From IMG/VR virus record IMGVR_UViG_3300049219_000004: DNA of 25,367 bases. One strand, given 5' to 3'. Below, in pieces: positions 20 through 24,091 of this stretch. Position 1 is the first letter of the stretch; every line of letters starts with the position of its first letter. The notes under the pieces were generated by a model. That model did no database searches and was not told the origin of the DNA. It saw only the letters and a list, made by a program, of their open reading frames with translations. Source of the stretch: a virus. Lineage: Duplodnaviria > Heunggongvirae > Uroviricota > Caudoviricetes. Made by a program: the position numbers and the translations under genes.

Positions 20-127
20 CCAAGCCATACAACGCCAAGGCTCAGGAGGCTTATATTCAAGCCGTGGAGGTATGGAAAGCTGAGAGCACGACATCATCAG
101 AAGTAGTGCTACTATAATTTTTCTCAT
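1..127 (-). CDS. N-terminus of a gene running off the window edge; hydrophobic signal/anchor-like start (MRKIIVALLLMMSCSQLSIPPRLEYKPPEPWRCMAWVVLKAM...)
   Basis: Not in the ORF track. ATG at 127-125 overlaps the HNH stop as ATGA, is preceded by GGAGAGG, and the frame is open to base 1. Confidence 0.65.
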   Translation of the reverse strand, partial: MRKIIVALLLMMSCSQLSIPPRLEYKPPEPWRCMAWVVLKAM

Positions 128-711
128 GTTCCGTGCCTCTCCGTGTAGCCCGCACCTTGAGTATTTAGTTCACTAATTATAGCATCCCTGTACACACAAG
201 CTTGCTTAAAAGCTGGAAGAAGTCCTAAAGAAGCTACACTGAAATATTTAGATTTTCGCTTTCCTTTTAAATCATTCCATTGTGCTTTGCAGTACAGATT
301 TCCGGCTTTATTAGTATGAAACCCTACTCCAGTGACTCCTGAAGAATTGTTAGAAAACGTCCCTTTGTTACGAGAGTTTTGAACATTCCCAACTAGCCTA
401 AGATTCCATGATTTGTTGTTACTTCTGTCCCCACTTTCATGGTCAATTTCATCACCTTCGCCTAGTTCAACCTGATACACAATAGAATACACTATTCTAT
501 GACACTTTAGCTGTCTGCCTCTATGGCGTGTAATCCAGTAGCCAGTAGCTTCATGGAAATGCCCTACTTCGTCACCTTTTCGGTTAATCACTGTAGTATG
601 CTTTCTTCCTCGGAACTTGTCCTTTCGTAGTCTCAGACAACTTTTACTTGTTTCGTCGTAGTAGAAAGCCGCACTGAGTTCCTTCAACGATATTTCAGTG
701 CTCGCTCTCAT
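124..711 (-). CDS. HNH homing endonuclease with C-terminal AP2-like DNA-binding domain
   Basis: Motif HRIVY...IDHESGDRSNNKSWNLRLV...N followed by NxSGVTGV...W...K.K.F. Start placed at ATG 711 after AAGGGGTGAT (the track starts at 726). Confidence 0.9.
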   Translation of the reverse strand: MRASTEISLKELSAAFYYDETSKSCLRLRKDKFRGRKHTTVINRKGDEVGHFHEATGYWITRHRGRQLKCHRIVYSIVYQVELGEGDEIDHESGDRSNNKSWNLRLVGNVQNSRNKGTFSNNSSGVTGVGFHTNKAGNLYCKAQWNDLKGKRKSKYFSVASLGLLPAFKQACVYRDAIISELNTQGAGYTERHGT

Positions 712-712
712 A

Positions 713-871
713 TCACCCCTTAGCAAGTAGGTAATGATTACTAACTACCTTGAACGAGAAATCCTTGTCCATTGCTTTTAGCACAACACCTTCTCGCATG
801 ACGCCCGGAGCAGCACCATCTCCGTCTACGCAACGAATCTTATCACCTACCTTAAAAATTTTCTTACCCAT
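713..871 (-). CDS. Small hypothetical protein (MGKKIFKVGDKIRCV...), possibly truncated by the HNH cassette
   Basis: AAGGAGAG RBS before ATG 871; SH3/KOW-like phage start FKVGDKIRCV. Confidence 0.65.
   Translation of the reverse strand: MGKKIFKVGDKIRCVDGDGAAPGVMREGVVLKAMDKDFSFKVVSNHYLLAKG
769..787 (+). repeat. 19-bp exact direct repeat, copy 2
   Basis: Identical to 1-19; encodes VVLKAM on the minus strand in both ORFs. Confidence 0.9.
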
Positions 872-17550: not shown

Positions 17551-18762
17551 TTACGCTCCCTTGCAGCACATTACTTGCTTCAAGACGTGTACAACGTCCA
17601 CCAAGGACTTCTGGTTCTCCATCACTACGTCGATGTCTTTGTAGGAAGCTGGAATTTCGTCCAGTACGGCATCATCTTTACGGCATTCGACTCCTGCTGT
17701 CTGTGCTTTAAGATCCTCAAGTGTGAAGAGTTCTCGTGCTTTCTTTCGGGACATTTTACGCCCAGCTCCATGTGAGCAGGAGCAGTAGGCTTCCTTATTC
17801 CCTTTTCCACGGACAATGTAAGAACGCTGCCCCATGCTGCCGGGGATGATTCCCAGATCGCCTTCATCAGCTCGTATTGCTCCCTTACGAGTGATCCAGA
17901 GGTCTTTTCCAAAGTGATTCTCCTTCGTTACGTAGTTGTGGTGGCAGTTAATGGCTTCTTCGGTGATGCCGAAAGTGATTGGAATTTCTTTGCGGAGAAC
18001 ATCCAGCACAGCTTGCAGCATGGCCTTACGATTTTCCTTCGCATAGTCCTGCGCCCAGCTTACAGCAGCCACGTAGTCTTCAAACAGGTCAGTACCTTGC
18101 GGCAGATAGGCCAAGTCGCCATCCGGCAGCGTAATGTGGAACTGTTCCATCAGCTCCTTACCCTTGTTGATGTAGTAGGAGCCGATCATGTTGCCGATGC
18201 CACGGGAGCCAGAGTGCAGCATCACCCAGACATCTTCATTTTCGTCAATACAGATTTCGATGAAGTGGTTGCCGGAACCTAGTGTGCCAAGTTGGCTAGC
18301 AGCTTTCATTCCTGCTTTATCCCTGTCACCAGAAAACACCGTCATAACAGACTGTGGCATCCCCTTAGAGACGTTATACGGAGTAATGCTAGGGTCTTTA
18401 TGAGCACCGCCCGTACCCATCGGCACAACAGCTTCGATGGCCGAACGAATCTTCGCCAACGAATCGGGCAACTGGTGAGCTTTCAGGCTCAGACGGGTAG
18501 CAACCATGCCGCAGCCAATGTCCACGCCCACAGCAGCCGGGATAATGGCCTTGTCCGTGGCAATGACGGTGCCAACAGTGGAGCCGATGCCTGCATGTAC
18601 GTCCGGCATGCATGCTACGCCTTGACGAGCAATGAATGGTAGACGAGCGAGGTTCTTGAGCTGGGACAGAGCTTCAGGCTCCACATCCTTCGTCCAAATT
18701 TTGATAGGTTTCGATCCCTCTTCAGCTTCGATTACCATCTTTGCGGTAGTACGTTCCTGCAT
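17551..18762 (-). CDS. rtcB: RtcB-family RNA 2',3'-cyclic-phosphate/5'-OH ligase
   Basis: MPDVHAG, VGVDIGCG, GTLGSGNHFIE, HSGSRG, HHNY, RKGA, PGSMG, SCSHGAGR, DEIPASYK. Confidence 0.97.
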   Translation of the reverse strand: MQERTTAKMVIEAEEGSKPIKIWTKDVEPEALSQLKNLARLPFIARQGVACMPDVHAGIGSTVGTVIATDKAIIPAAVGVDIGCGMVATRLSLKAHQLPDSLAKIRSAIEAVVPMGTGGAHKDPSITPYNVSKGMPQSVMTVFSGDRDKAGMKAASQLGTLGSGNHFIEICIDENEDVWVMLHSGSRGIGNMIGSYYINKGKELMEQFHITLPDGDLAYLPQGTDLFEDYVAAVSWAQDYAKENRKAMLQAVLDVLRKEIPITFGITEEAINCHHNYVTKENHFGKDLWITRKGAIRADEGDLGIIPGSMGQRSYIVRGKGNKEAYCSCSHGAGRKMSRKKARELFTLEDLKAQTAGVECRKDDAVLDEIPASYKDIDVVMENQKSLVDVVHVLKQVMCCKGA

Positions 18763-18791
18763 AATTTCTCCTCAGTTAGTTGATAGCCATG

Positions 18792-18821
18792 ATAGTAATG
18801 CTACTTACGTGGTTCTGTCAA
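18792..18821 (-). promoter_or_regulatory. Promoter TTGACA-18-TACTAT upstream of rtcB
   Basis: Read on the minus strand; TAAGTAG in the spacer. Confidence 0.6.
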
Positions 18822-19392
18822 GGAATTCTTGCACAATCTTGTCTAGTTTCGCCCAGAGCACTGGACAACCACCCTCCAGAGCAACATCCAGAAGACGCCG
18901 CGTTTCTCTCGCAAATACCGGGGCAAACTCCGGGTCTTCCGTCAGAAGGGTCATGTTATGCAAGCGGTCGGCTAGCTTAATGGTCTTGACGTGTGCTGGA
19001 GCTAATTTCAATCGGTAACATTCAAGGACTTTCTTTTCAGCACGATTGAGTGGTTTCCCGGACGGGTCTGTTTGTCCACTGTAGTCACGTTTCGTGAGCC
19101 ATTTAACGTCTTCAGCAACAGCTTCACCAAAGTGTTCTTTGATTTCGTCAAGTGTGACATGCGTATCTTCTACGACATCATGCAACAGGGCGACAACTTG
19201 TGTATGAACGTCACTGTGTCCGTGATCGTGCAGGAGGTCAGCTACGTCCATCGGGTGAGTCCAGTAGGGAATGCCAGAGAATTTCCGTTTCTGGCCGCTA
19301 TGGGCAGCTTGACAGAAGCCTGTAGCATGCGAAATATCCGATACGTCTTTCATGTTTTGTTCAATTCGCTGTGAACGTTCAGCAGGATTCAT
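18805..19392 (-). CDS. HD-domain protein, RelA/SpoT hydrolase (Mesh1/SAH)-like
   Basis: AH.GQ.RK.SG.PY..HP..VA, ALLHDVVEDT, V..LTK, KLADRLHNM; no synthetase domain. Confidence 0.9.
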   Translation of the reverse strand: MNPAERSQRIEQNMKDVSDISHATGFCQAAHSGQKRKFSGIPYWTHPMDVADLLHDHGHSDVHTQVVALLHDVVEDTHVTLDEIKEHFGEAVAEDVKWLTKRDYSGQTDPSGKPLNRAEKKVLECYRLKLAPAHVKTIKLADRLHNMTLLTEDPEFAPVFARETRRLLDVALEGGCPVLWAKLDKIVQEFLDRTT

Positions 19393-19448
19393 ATTTCCTC
19401 CTAATTAAGTAGTGTTACGTATAGTTATAAAGCCCTTACGGGCCAAAT

Positions 19449-20111
19449 TCAAGCAGCGAGACGGTCTACAAGGTTTTTCACAGTAGTCGTATGCCATTCG
19501 CCGCCACGAGCAGTTTTAGTGCCACTGGCGTTCAATTCTTCAGCCATTGCACGAAGTGTCATGCCAGCTCCACGCATGCGCATGATAGTCGGACGGAGAC
19601 GGATAGCAAATGCATCGGCTTTCTCAGAAACGGCCTTGCCGGCGTTGACACAAGCCTTGGCACGGATGTCAGCCGAAGCTCCTAGAACCTCTCCACGGGC
19701 ACGTTTAGCCGCCAGAGCGGCCTTTGTGCGGTCAGAAATCATCTTCCGCTCCTGTTCCGCCAAACCCGCGTAAATGTGGAGCATGAATGGGTCAACGTCT
19801 TCCCCGAGCACCGTCACAATGAACTTCGGATTCTGGCGGGTATAGCTGAGGATGAACAGAGCATCACGGGAGAGACGATCCAGCTTGTTTACGACGACGT
19901 ATGCGCCCATCTTGGCAGCACGTTTGGTCACAGCAGCCAACACAGGCCGGGAGTCGTCAGCACCGCTCATAACCTCTTCTGCGATGTCAATCAACTCGTA
20001 GCCGTTGTAGTGACAGAACAGGCGGATGGCTTCGGCCTGAGCTTCCAGACCGTTCCTGTTCTCGCCTTGCTCTTTTGTACTGACTCGCGTGTAGCCGATG
20101 ATTTTTTTCAC
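19449..20111 (-). CDS. Serine recombinase (resolvase/invertase family) with C-terminal DNA-binding domain
   Basis: YTRVSTKEQ catalytic Ser motif, RP.L, KLDRLSRD, AEQER..ISDRTKAAL; AGGAGG RBS, GTG start. Confidence 0.93.
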   Translation of the reverse strand: MKKIIGYTRVSTKEQGENRNGLEAQAEAIRLFCHYNGYELIDIAEEVMSGADDSRPVLAAVTKRAAKMGAYVVVNKLDRLSRDALFILSYTRQNPKFIVTVLGEDVDPFMLHIYAGLAEQERKMISDRTKAALAAKRARGEVLGASADIRAKACVNAGKAVSEKADAFAIRLRPTIMRMRGAGMTLRAMAEELNASGTKTARGGEWHTTTVKNLVDRLAA

Positions 20112-21915: not shown

Positions 21916-22134
21916 ATGGCCAATAGATGGAAAGACCTCTCCTTAGAGGAGGCAGTAGAACGCGCTAAGGGAGTGTCCAGACAAGCCCTGTACATCGCAA
22001 TCAGGACGTACACCGCAAACGGTCGTACAGACATCGCAGAGCAGCTACGACAGGTACGTGTGGTTCTCAAGGCTGACAAATTAGCCGCCAAGCGTAATGC
22101 GAAACTAAGTAGTATCGAAAAACTTGACAAGTAA
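21916..22134 (+). CDS. Hypothetical basic protein
   Basis: Follows the previous stop; co-oriented. Confidence 0.7.
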   Translation: MANRWKDLSLEEAVERAKGVSRQALYIAIRTYTANGRTDIAEQLRQVRVVLKADKLAAKRNAKLSSIEKLDK

Positions 22135-22152
22135 TGCTACTTAGCGTATAAT
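22124..22152 (+). promoter_or_regulatory. Consensus promoter TTGACA-17-TATAAT driving the RNA cluster
   Basis: Perfect consensus. Confidence 0.9.
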
Positions 22153-22715: not shown

Positions 22716-22814
22716 CATATTGCTAGCAGTTGAACGATAGGCGAGAGTTAGAACGGTTGCAAACGTGCCCCAGAATACTAGCTTGCAGCTTCTAGCAATA
22801 TGTGCGAATAATGC

Positions 22815-22843
22815 TTGACAAACAGTGAAGCATGTAGTAAGAT
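22815..22843 (+). promoter_or_regulatory. Internal promoter TTGACA-17-TAAGAT
   Basis: Read directly. Confidence 0.8.
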
Positions 22844-22952: not shown

Positions 22953-23027
22953 TCCCGGTTAATAACGGCTACTATAGGGCCGTCGATATGTTAGCTTACG
23001 TAGGTGCAATTCCTACACTGGGAGCCA
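22953..23027 (+). ncRNA. D-armless tRNA-like RNA ending in CCA
   Basis: TCCCGGT/ACTGGGA-G-CCA; T-arm GTAGG-TGCAATT-CCTAC; single internal hairpin. Confidence 0.7.
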
Positions 23028-23033
23028 AACAAT

Positions 23034-23268: not shown

Positions 23269-23344
23269 TTCGCATAATGCACAATGGAGTGCAGCCGGAC
23301 TGTTAATCCGTGTGAGCTACGTTCGATCCGTAGATGCGGAGCCA
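23269..23344 (+). tRNA. tRNA-Asn(GUU)
   Basis: CT-GTT-AA; G73; CCA. Confidence 0.92.
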
Positions 23345-23731: not shown

Positions 23732-23808
23732 GGGCTGCTGGCGCAATTGGCAGACGCGTATGCCTTAGGCGCATAATGTTCTCGGTTCGAATCCGAGGTG
23801 GCCCACCA
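23732..23808 (+). tRNA. tRNA-Leu(UAG) with short variable region
   Basis: TATGC-CT-TAG-GC-GCATA; variable region ATGTT; ACCA. Confidence 0.9.
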
Positions 23809-23809
23809 A

Positions 23810-23908
23810 GTTATTCGTGCGGGGATAAGCCCCTTGTGTCGCAGGTTCGAATCCTGCATCTGGCTCACGGGCCGGATTAGCTCAGTCGGTAGAGCAGCGG
23901 AGCAATAC
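23810..23908 (+). ncRNA. Circularly permuted tRNA mimic (T-arm, closed acceptor stem, D-arm), YrlA/Y-RNA-like
   Basis: GCAGG-TTCGAAT-CCTGC, then ATCTGGC-TCACGG-GCCGGAT, then TA-GCTC-AGTCGGTA-GAGC-A-GCGGA; GCGGA can pair with upstream TTCGT. Confidence 0.75.
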
Positions 23909-23911
23909 AAT

Positions 23912-23995
23912 GCACGAGTGGCGGAATGGCATACGCAGCAGGTTCAAACCCTGTGGCCTTCGGGATTGAGAGTTCAAGTCTCTCCTTGTGTACCA
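23912..23995 (+). tRNA. tRNA-Leu(CAA)
   Basis: GCAGG-TT-CAA-AC-CCTGT; variable arm; ACCA. Confidence 0.9.
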
Positions 23996-24003
23996 AGAAA
24001 TAT

Positions 24004-24091
24004 GCGCGTAATGCCGAAGTGGGTAGGCAGTAGACTTTTAATCTACCGAGACGCAAGTCCAGAGTTGGTTCGATTCCAACTGCGCGTACCA
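24004..24091 (+). tRNA. tRNA with Lys anticodon (UUU) and a 17-nt class-II-like variable arm
   Basis: GTAGA-CT-TTT-AA-TCTAC; GAC-GCAA-GTC arm; ACCA. Confidence 0.88.

Follow-up and report, generated by a model that had tools for sequence, protein, structure and literature searches.

The closest described relatives of the element discussed here are the bacterial Y RNAs of the YrlA type (Rfam RF02553), which are bound by Ro60/Rsr, are modified by TruB and DusA, and consist of a Ro60-binding handle and of an effector domain that resembles a tRNA and for which no partner is known. It was described by Chen et al. 2014 (PMC4201824) that many YrlA RNAs carry a V stem-loop upstream of the T arm, that the Levitt pair is conserved among them, and that a full 7-bp acceptor stem is the determinant for RNase P cleavage of the YrlA of Mycobacterium smegmatis. 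Sealed tRNA mimics of this kind, phage ones included, have been published since 2014 (PMC4201824) and are not categorically new. Additionally, phage Ro60 with Y-like RNAs has been characterised structurally, and phage Ro60 proteins are reported to use host PNPase (PMC12135203). The window considered here, that is, the whole stretch of 25,367 nucleotides of DNA from a phage of the Caudoviricetes (IMG/VR record IMGVR_UViG_3300049219_000004), contains on its plus strand a 103-nt spacer, 23809-23911, between a tRNA with anticodon TAG and tRNA-Leu(CAA). A reading made from the letters of the window before any search, referred to below as the sequence-only reading, had described a YrlA-like tRNA mimic in this spacer, circularly permuted and with its acceptor end sealed. 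Our analysis indicates that the element very probably corresponds to the tRNA-like half of a Y RNA of the YrlA type, its effector domain, with the Ro60-binding half missing, and we hold with similarly high confidence that it is a selected, structured, non-decoding and non-chargeable tRNA mimic, a non-coding RNA (ncRNA) of about 90-100 nt.

Read directly, the spacer runs through one strand of a closing stem, a V hairpin, a T arm, a sealed acceptor stem-loop, a UA dinucleotide, a D arm and the returning strand of the closing stem (Table 1), and a base-by-base reading found every coordinate given earlier for the arms, strands, linker, extra hairpin and GCGGA/TTCGT pairing to be correct. The acceptor strands form 7/7 pairs, one of which is G-U, and the closing stem GCGGA/TTCGT comprises 5 bp, two of them G-U. 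A GC dinucleotide stands between TTCGT, which ends at 23818, and the V hairpin, which starts at 23821, and a single A separates the D arm from the GCGGA strand. The nucleotides required for the tertiary contacts of a tRNA elbow are all there (U8, A14, G15:C48, G18-G19, T54, T55, C56 and A58). The UA at 23878-23879, the GG at 23888-23889 and the T loop TTCGAAT reproduce the tertiary-contact feature of YrlA, the same contacts being likewise possible in the copy found in a diverged relative (L244, see below), and a Levitt pair can form between G15 (23885) and C48 (23840). The 5-bp anticodon-type stem opens into the two ends of the RNA itself. Since there is neither an anticodon loop nor a CCA end, the element can neither decode nor be charged. 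Two other pairings were considered and dropped, namely the minimum free energy pairing TTGTGT/ATACAA, given that ACAAT is a generic pre-tRNA leader and that this pairing is absent in L244, and an alternative closing helix TGC/GCG plus TTC/GAG obtained by constrained folding, to which the L244 sequence gives no support.

The strongest evidence for the fold comes from comparison with related phages. The spacer is unchanged in other assemblies of the same phage, which are uninformative in this respect, and relatives were found by an RtcB search that returned a large clade with contigs of about 85-92 kb, of which three were compared (L242, L243 and L244; the L-numbers are labels of the IMG/VR or related loci compared with the window). 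In all three (3/3), a module encoding Resolvase, HD_4 and RtcB and the tRNA array occur in the same order. In L244, whose RtcB is 76% identical, a copy of the element lies at L244:2929-3032 (minus strand), immediately behind a tRNA that resembles Leu(TAG) and has CCA at its end, and its segment lengths equal those of the window except for the V loop (4 vs 5 nt) and the sealing loop (7 vs 6 nt). When the 25 base pairs were compared under guidance of this architecture, 17 were unchanged, 8 had changed on both sides and none was broken, with differences at 9/32 comparable unpaired positions. The compensated pairs are distributed over the closing stem (2), which reads TGGGT/GCCCA in L244 and is still paired, the V hairpin (4, all of its pairs), which reads ATCC-GAGA-GGAT, the T stem (1), whose first pair passes from G-C in the window to A-U, and the acceptor stem (1), whose loop-closing pair passes from C-G to U-A; the sealing-loop sequence is not conserved. 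Every helix drawn in the sequence-only reading is supported by this comparison, the closing stem and the extra GGGG/CCCC hairpin being backed by two and four compensatory pair changes, respectively. Given eight double-sided changes and no broken pair in L244, the fold is very probably under selection, and, as far as sequence comparison can tell, the compensated stems argue strongly against a decaying relic. Two ordinary tRNAs in this slot, the arrangement on which the earlier description was said to fall, were looked for in the relatives and not found. Further orthologues were sought with an exact 21-mer of the element and with a degenerate orthologue pattern, neither of which had a match in IMG/VR, and no orthologue was present among the seven matches of the latter in JGI metagenome contigs; a search with a tail-region protein returned 22 IMG/VR loci, with a tRNA cluster in none of them.

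A T arm followed closely by a D arm may also arise where two tRNA genes adjoin, and it has been reported that such dimeric tRNA junctions imitate YrlA in searches (Chen et al. 2014, PMC4201824); in fact, sub-threshold matches to the YrlA model, stemming from tRNA junctions, were obtained in 13/14 control genomes. In the window, no tRNA was called inside the spacer by ARAGORN or by the Rfam tRNA model, even in a permissive scan, and both programs called complete tRNAs up to 23808 and from 23912. IMG/VR was then scanned with a pattern that fixed nothing but the T loop, the D arm and the distance separating them. In each of the 110 distinct sites obtained, the 7 nt that follow the T stem were scored for pairing with the 7 nt that precede the UA. 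Sites with both arms in ARAGORN tRNAs (n=75) showed 0-6 acceptor pairs and never 7/7, and those with neither arm in a tRNA (n=21) showed 5-7, with complete pairing in 14/21. Because its arms belong to no tRNA and its acceptor strands pair 7/7, unlike those of 75/75 true junctions, the window element falls in the sealed class and a dimeric junction was rejected. This unbiased count replaced a covariation count on 38 IMG/VR modules, which was set aside as not independent, since the filter that selected those modules had required pairing. Among GenBank phages no close relative of the element was found, and distant blastn matches were tRNA-tRNA junctions, such as Ile|Val in Caulobacter phiCbK.

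The search with the Rfam YrlA model that the sequence-only reading had proposed gave a divided answer. YrlA (RF02553) was the best Rfam match of the spacer (23814-23921, 34.2 bits, E 2.9e-6 on 161 nt), and the T arm, acceptor stem-loop and D arm were aligned with high posterior, but the score is half of the Rfam gathering threshold of 69 bits, a weak criterion in itself, as a classical TROVE-adjacent example (L028) reaches only 43 bits. Together with the anatomy and the 7/7 acceptor pairing, this match bears out a circularly permuted, acceptor-sealed tRNA mimic with the T arm, sealed acceptor stem-loop and D arm in the YrlA order. The wider label of a YrlA-like or Y-RNA-like molecule holds for this tRNA-like module and not for the remainder, as the Ro60 helix, a CGAA-type motif and a threshold score are all lacking. 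The Ro60-binding helix is absent from the spacer, where the flanking tRNAs leave room for a 5-bp stem only; the 7-bp outer helix in the Rfam alignment (23814-23820 with 23912-23918) borrows the acceptor strand of the next tRNA, and in the window the model's middle helix does not pair, appearing in the alignment as non-standard pairs. The Ro60 motif GNCGAAN0-1G is not found in the 5' strand, the only CGAA of the spacer being that of the T loop, and the L244 copy has none. A candidate handle, GTTATTCG at 23810-23817, which resembles the GGTTACTTCG of TROVE-linked phage YrlA RNAs, was rejected because the spacers of L242 and L243 begin in the same way, although a different RNA follows there.

A protein partner was sought in the phage as well. 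The genome of about 89 kb was covered by exact-protein look-ups, of which nine were tried and eight returned loci, and across its whole length no called gene carried TROVE, DUF2828 or DUF7788. For the nine long ORFs without annotation, Pfam had no relevant match at E up to 0.1, and tblastn against the same genome with a phage TROVE protein (from L028) and with a DUF2828/DUF7788 protein (from L004) returned nothing. In the window itself no ORF exceeds 460 aa, the large ones encoding a DNA ligase, RtcB, a resolvase, the HD_4 protein and unknowns. The phage has no recognisable Ro60-like gene, so the remark in the sequence-only reading that no Ro60/TROVE gene is visible in the window now extends to the whole genome. 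The sole vWA-like protein, of 456 aa, was considered as a hidden Ro60 and discarded, as it consists of an N-terminal vWA and a beta-rich domain without an alpha-solenoid, and its top 50 structural matches in the PDB do not include Ro60. Its gene is located outside the window, about 30 kb away in the same phage (L101:10001-11371, plus strand), and adjoins genes for Macro-domain, NAMPT-like and PRPP-synthetase-like proteins; the family counts more than 1000 relatives in phages of about 90 kb.

Table 1. Coordinates in the window of the parts of the permuted element, its flanking tRNA genes and the features discussed as its context.
Feature	Position	Strand	Remark
5' leader AGTTA	23809-23813	+	directly after the encoded CCA of tRNA-Leu(TAG)
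TTCGT, 3' strand of the 5-bp anticodon-type closing stem	23814-23818	+	pairs with 23897-23901
V hairpin GGGG / ATAAG loop / CCCC, in the variable-arm position	23821-23833	+	direct reading, folding
Variable-loop remainder TTGTGTC; C23840 is the position-48 analogue	23834-23840	+	direct reading
T arm GCAGG / TTCGAAT / CCTGC	23841-23857	+	direct reading, Rfam alignment
Sealed acceptor stem ATCTGGC, loop TCACGG, GCCGGAT; 7 bp, no CCA	23858-23877	+	
Acceptor 3' strand	23858-23864	+	
Acceptor linker, 6 nt	23865-23870	+	
Acceptor 5' strand	23871-23877	+	
UA linker (positions 8-9, 23878-23879) and D arm GCTC / AGTCGGTA / GAGC (23880-23895)	23878-23895	+	
GCGGA, 5' strand of the closing stem	23897-23901	+	pairs with TTCGT
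3' tail GCAATACAAT, 10 nt	23902-23911	+	ACAAT end is the generic leader of array tRNAs
Flanking tRNA, anticodon TAG, encoded CCA	23732-23808	+	sets the 5' limit of the RNA
Flanking tRNA-Leu(CAA)	23912-23995	+	sets the 3' limit of the RNA
Sigma-70 consensus promoter TTGACA-17-TATAAT, 12/12	22124-22152	+	upstream of the first tRNA; consensus match only
RtcB RNA ligase gene	17551-18762	-	Pfam RtcB, E 5.8e-123; context only

The element belongs to a plus-strand array of 16 tRNAs according to ARAGORN, or 14 in a gathering-level Rfam scan. The consensus promoter ahead of the first tRNA likely drives a polycistronic transcript that contains it, given that no plus-strand terminator-like site was found from this promoter to the end of the window and no promoter next to the element. 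The fold is separated from the neighbouring tRNAs by 5 nt on its 5' side and 10 nt on its 3' side, and the ACAAT that closes its 3' tail recurs, as (A)ACAAT, at the end of the spacers before the Met, Val and Ala tRNAs of the array. From the complete tRNA starting at 23912 we infer RNase P cleavage at 23911/23912, and the RNA would be made within a polycistronic tRNA precursor and released by tRNA-processing enzymes. On the 5' side, the Leu(TAG) gene is followed by an AGT(T/A) trailer in L242, L243 and L244 whatever RNA comes next, and since this trailer precedes different cargos in the relatives, the leader AGTTA is to be regarded as spacer rather than as part of the fold.

Other features of the array and of the window were recorded on their own account. 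A seventeenth tRNA, Asn (GTT) with an odd D arm, lies at 23269-23344 (plus strand) and was detected by ARAGORN at a relaxed threshold only, being missed by the Rfam tRNA model; a tRNA-Asn is present in L242 at the same place of the array, between Met and Asp, and in L244 between Met and Gly. The flanking TAG (Leu) tRNA is 77 nt long and is devoid of the long variable arm typical of tRNA-Leu, and tRNA-Lys(TTT) at 24004-24091 (plus strand; 88 nt) has a long extra arm and, at 30.5 bits, is barely above the Rfam tRNA threshold, so that both identities are uncertain. The 318-nt spacer from Pro to Met opens with a structure closed by an 11-bp stem, CATATTGCTAG...CTAGCAATATG, at 22716-22802 (plus strand), contains a second promoter-like site at 22815-22843 (10/12), and ends, at about 22990-23033 (plus strand), with a tRNA-like T arm and GCCA that may represent a pseudo-tRNA or another small RNA. 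At the other end of the window, a 200-aa ORF for an HNH/AP2-type endonuclease (124-726, minus strand) is not on record in other assemblies of the same phage, in contrast to the DNA ligase next to it, and probably represents the insertion of a mobile homing endonuclease that varies from isolate to isolate.

The sequence-only reading had also stressed that the same phage encodes RtcB. The gene is indeed present, about 5 kb from the element, but the link is circumstantial: RtcB was found in 0/27 IMG/VR phage records with sealed modules obtained by pattern scan, the sole RtcB match in that record search being the record of L004, itself found through RtcB, and a sealed module was present in 2/80 RtcB-centred viral loci (L004 and L028). 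The gene forms part of a Resolvase, HD_4 (RelA/SpoT-type hydrolase) and RtcB block (17551-20111, minus strand) that is kept in L242, L243 and L244 and looks like an RNA/tRNA repair and counter-defence module. TROVE, on the other hand, occurs in 15/27 of the records with sealed modules and in 8/10 of those at least 90% complete, and the TROVE-linked RNAs have long terminal helices of up to about 30 bp and a common 5' motif of the GGTTACTTCG type. L028 represents the classical arrangement, in which three tandem modules are followed by TROVE and then by RtcB. The L004 phage has RtcB and a vWA protein that are 68% and 55% identical to those of the window phage, and the module in its tRNA region has a CAGCA motif and a long terminal helix; CAGCA also occurs in L189, L112 and L217 and is not found in 23809-23911. 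The L004 RNA (L004:1846-1948, minus strand) is permuted and tRNA-like and lies directly upstream of a vWA gene (L004:316-1722, minus strand), whose 468-aa DUF2828/DUF7788 product has weak sequence similarity to the solved Ro60 of a Thermus phage (E 0.011). At least one further case of a similarly minimal module squeezed between tRNAs was seen, in L163, an unrelated phage fragment. Finally, the L003 phage, whose RtcB is 71% identical, carries at L003:2979-3050 (plus strand) a tRNA-shaped gene with an open acceptor and CCA that has a 4-bp stem and 3-nt loop instead of an anticodon arm and is labelled tRNA-??? by ARAGORN; the adjoining tRNA gene (L003:3054-3178, plus strand) measures 125 nt, about 55 nt of which are inserted in its anticodon region.

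As to its origin, both halves of the element look derived from a single tRNA-Thr-like gene, to judge by their sequences. When JGI metagenome contigs were searched with a degenerate acceptor/D-arm pattern, 4/7 matches fell in ordinary tRNA-Thr genes; positions 23871-23900 are nearly the same as the 5' halves of these bacterial tRNA-Thr(UGU) genes, and the 3' half of the element carries the matching acceptor strand. Halves that are Thr-like and mutually complementary are what would remain if a tandem duplicate, or a dimeric tRNA, were stripped of its outer halves. A route from dimeric tRNA transcripts to YrlA was proposed by Sim and Wolin, as cited in 10.1101/312249, and the element looks like a living example of such a dimeric or tandem tRNA passing into a Y RNA.

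Taken as a whole, the explanation that we favour, and consider somewhat probable, is that of a tRNA look-alike that is independent of Ro60, matured from the array and acting as a decoy or adaptor. Transcription would start at the array promoter and yield a polycistronic tRNA precursor, in which the 5' end of the RNA would be set by 3' processing of the upstream tRNA and the 3' end by the RNase P cut of the downstream tRNA followed by trimming, and the T and D loops would probably be modified. Given the full 7-bp acceptor stem, the sealing loop might additionally be nicked by RNase P, which acts in this way on the YrlA of M. smegmatis. The resulting stable, non-decoding look-alike might occupy or recruit a protein that reads the elbow and acceptor of tRNAs, for example a host tRNA-directed defence or processing factor. 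This decoy or adaptor mechanism is put forward as a tentative possibility; action without Ro60 is proposed because there is neither a Ro60-like gene in the phage nor a Ro60 site in the RNA.

Several observations weigh against this explanation. The folding-energy z-score of the element is ordinary (-1.14), its conservation rests on one diverged orthologue (L244), and in L242 and L243, whose RtcB proteins are 87% and 82% identical, the element is absent and a different RNA occupies the slot. Moreover, a Ro60 partner could be encoded by the host, and the decoy or adaptor role, doubtful as it stands, is inferred only, with no candidate partner identified. The presence of another RNA in the slot of two closer relatives indicates that the element is accessory cargo, dispensable for the phage lineage. 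That RNA, at L242:4187-4315 and L243:3373-3501 (both minus strand), is an unrelated stem-closed molecule of 129 nt, with 36 predicted pairs of which 9 are compensated, and it has no Rfam match at E 0.01 or below. It is conceivable, if speculative, that related phages swap different Ro60-independent decoy RNAs in the Leu(TAG)/Leu(CAA) spacer, which would then serve as a slot with exchangeable content.

Among the alternatives, it is unlikely that the element is a genuine Y RNA bound by a host-encoded Ro60 (Rsr) through its short closing stem or through a longer precursor helix in which 23814-23820 pairs with 23912-23918, the initial 7 nt of the tRNA that follows. The 7-bp outer helix of the Rfam alignment, the presence of TROVE in 8/10 near-complete phage records with sealed modules and the plausibility of mixed phage-host particles, considering the use of host PNPase by phage Ro60 (PMC12135203), speak for it, but one side of that helix is an acceptor strand from a well-formed tRNA, which has to be released by RNase P, and the helix cannot be conserved in L244, where no tRNA follows the element. 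Likewise, the unpaired middle helix, the lack of a CGAA-type motif outside the T loop (and of any in L244) and a spacer with no room for the helices of up to about 30 bp seen in Ro60-linked phage RNAs do not suit a Ro60 ligand. It is distinctly unlikely, too, that a two-piece mimic of an anticodon-cut tRNA, generated by RNase P cleavage of the sealing loop, engages RNA repair through the phage RtcB or a host RtcR-type sensor. A 5'-phosphate and a 3'-OH, as produced by RNase P and 3' trimming, are not RtcB substrates, and such ends would be expected here; additionally, RtcB is missing from 27/27 other phage records with such RNAs, and the sealing loop differs in sequence between the window and L244. 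On its side this reading has the full 7-bp acceptor, the RNase P determinant in M. smegmatis YrlA (PMC4201824), the RtcB and HD_4 hydrolase genes 5 kb off in a module conserved among relatives, and tRNA fragments, the reported signal for the bacterial Rtc operon (PMC7790460).

A non-functional relic of a tandem or dimeric tRNA-Thr gene without its outer halves would account for the Thr-like and mutually complementary halves, as a tandem duplicate predicts, for the absence of the element from two close relatives and for its company of other degenerate tRNA-like pieces in the array. It is nevertheless very unlikely, since the 16 stem substitutions between the window and L244 are all compensated with no pair broken, the tertiary-contact nucleotides are intact, and many unrelated phages have RNAs of this sealed architecture, whose stems covary. 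The last alternative, that of a true permuted tRNA gene, is hardly credible. In this case, the ends would be joined by RtcB or another ligase, RNase P would open the acceptor and CCA would be added, and the product, which is just as improbable, would be a Thr-type tRNA with anticodon AGU in a loop GCAGUUA (window) or GCAGUAA (L244). The 3' half does stand ahead of the 5' half of one tRNA-Thr-like body, RtcB is encoded, and the GC after the stem together with the AGUUA/AGUAA before it makes a 7-nt loop with G35 and U36 in both orthologues. U33 is near-universal in anticodon loops. The loop here has G32 and C33 instead of U33, and U37 in the window, so that a canonical 7-nt loop (U33, purine 37) is not rebuilt, the full tails giving a 15-nt loop and GCAGUUA being the only 7-nt option. 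Furthermore, eight nucleotides at the 3' end would have to be removed precisely, the AGT leader is spacer that follows Leu(TAG) in relatives with different cargo, no splicing-type endonuclease or bulge-helix-bulge motif is evident, and G1-C72 is replaced by A-U in L244. Re-ligation into a working tRNA, which the sequence-only reading had entertained, is consequently unlikely, there being no canonical anticodon loop and the expected RNA ends being chemically unsuited to RtcB. Were the permuted-tRNA reading to hold against these very long odds, this would be the first permuted tRNA gene of a bacterial virus.

Under the favoured reading of a Ro60-independent look-alike, the effector domain of YrlA stands here alone. 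With no handle, no Ro60-like gene and a fold kept by compensatory evolution, the tRNA-like module appears to have a function of its own, and it offers a simple system for finding the partner of that domain, consisting of one RNA of about 100 nt that is dispensable in close relatives and has a defined slot in the array. The exchange of RNAs at this slot suggests, moreover, that phage tRNA arrays carry accessory ncRNAs that ordinary annotation misses. In limited full-text searches of the literature on permuted tRNAs and tRNA mimics in phage tRNA clusters, no form lacking both Ro60 and the handle was found described.

Regarding the known systems, Cyanidioschyzon merolae, a red alga, has permuted tRNA genes, and some bacteria have tmRNA genes of a permuted, two-piece kind. 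The element shares with them the 3' half placed before the 5' half and a likely origin by tandem duplication, but those genes give working tRNA or tmRNA whose acceptor is open and carries CCA, whereas here a canonical anticodon loop is not rebuildable and there is no evident processing pathway. Dimeric tRNA junctions are alike in presenting a T arm and then a D arm within about 25 nt, and differ in that here neither arm lies in a tRNA and the acceptor is paired 7/7. The phage Y-like RNAs encoded with TROVE or DUF2828/DUF7788 genes (L028 and L004) have the same sealed tRNA-like core, to which they add a long terminal helix of their own, often a GGTTACTTCG or CAGCA motif, and an adjacent Ro60-like gene, none of which accompanies the window RNA. 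The M. smegmatis YrlA (Chen et al. 2014) has the full 7-bp acceptor stem in common with the element and is there an RNase P substrate that subsequently receives CCA; it is bound by Rsr and encoded upstream of rsr, whereas RNase P cleavage of the phage RNA is only predicted by analogy. From YrlA RNAs in general (RF02553; PMC4201824; 10.1101/312249) the element is set apart by the missing Ro60 helix and motif, a closing stem of only 5 bp, a score of 34 vs 69 bits, the lack of a Ro60 gene nearby (within about 4 kb) or in the genome, and a location inside a tRNA array, and it is united with them by the V-T-AS-D order, the sealed acceptor, the UA linker, the D and T arms, the Levitt pair, the absence of an anticodon loop and of a CCA end, and a presumed origin from tRNA dimers.

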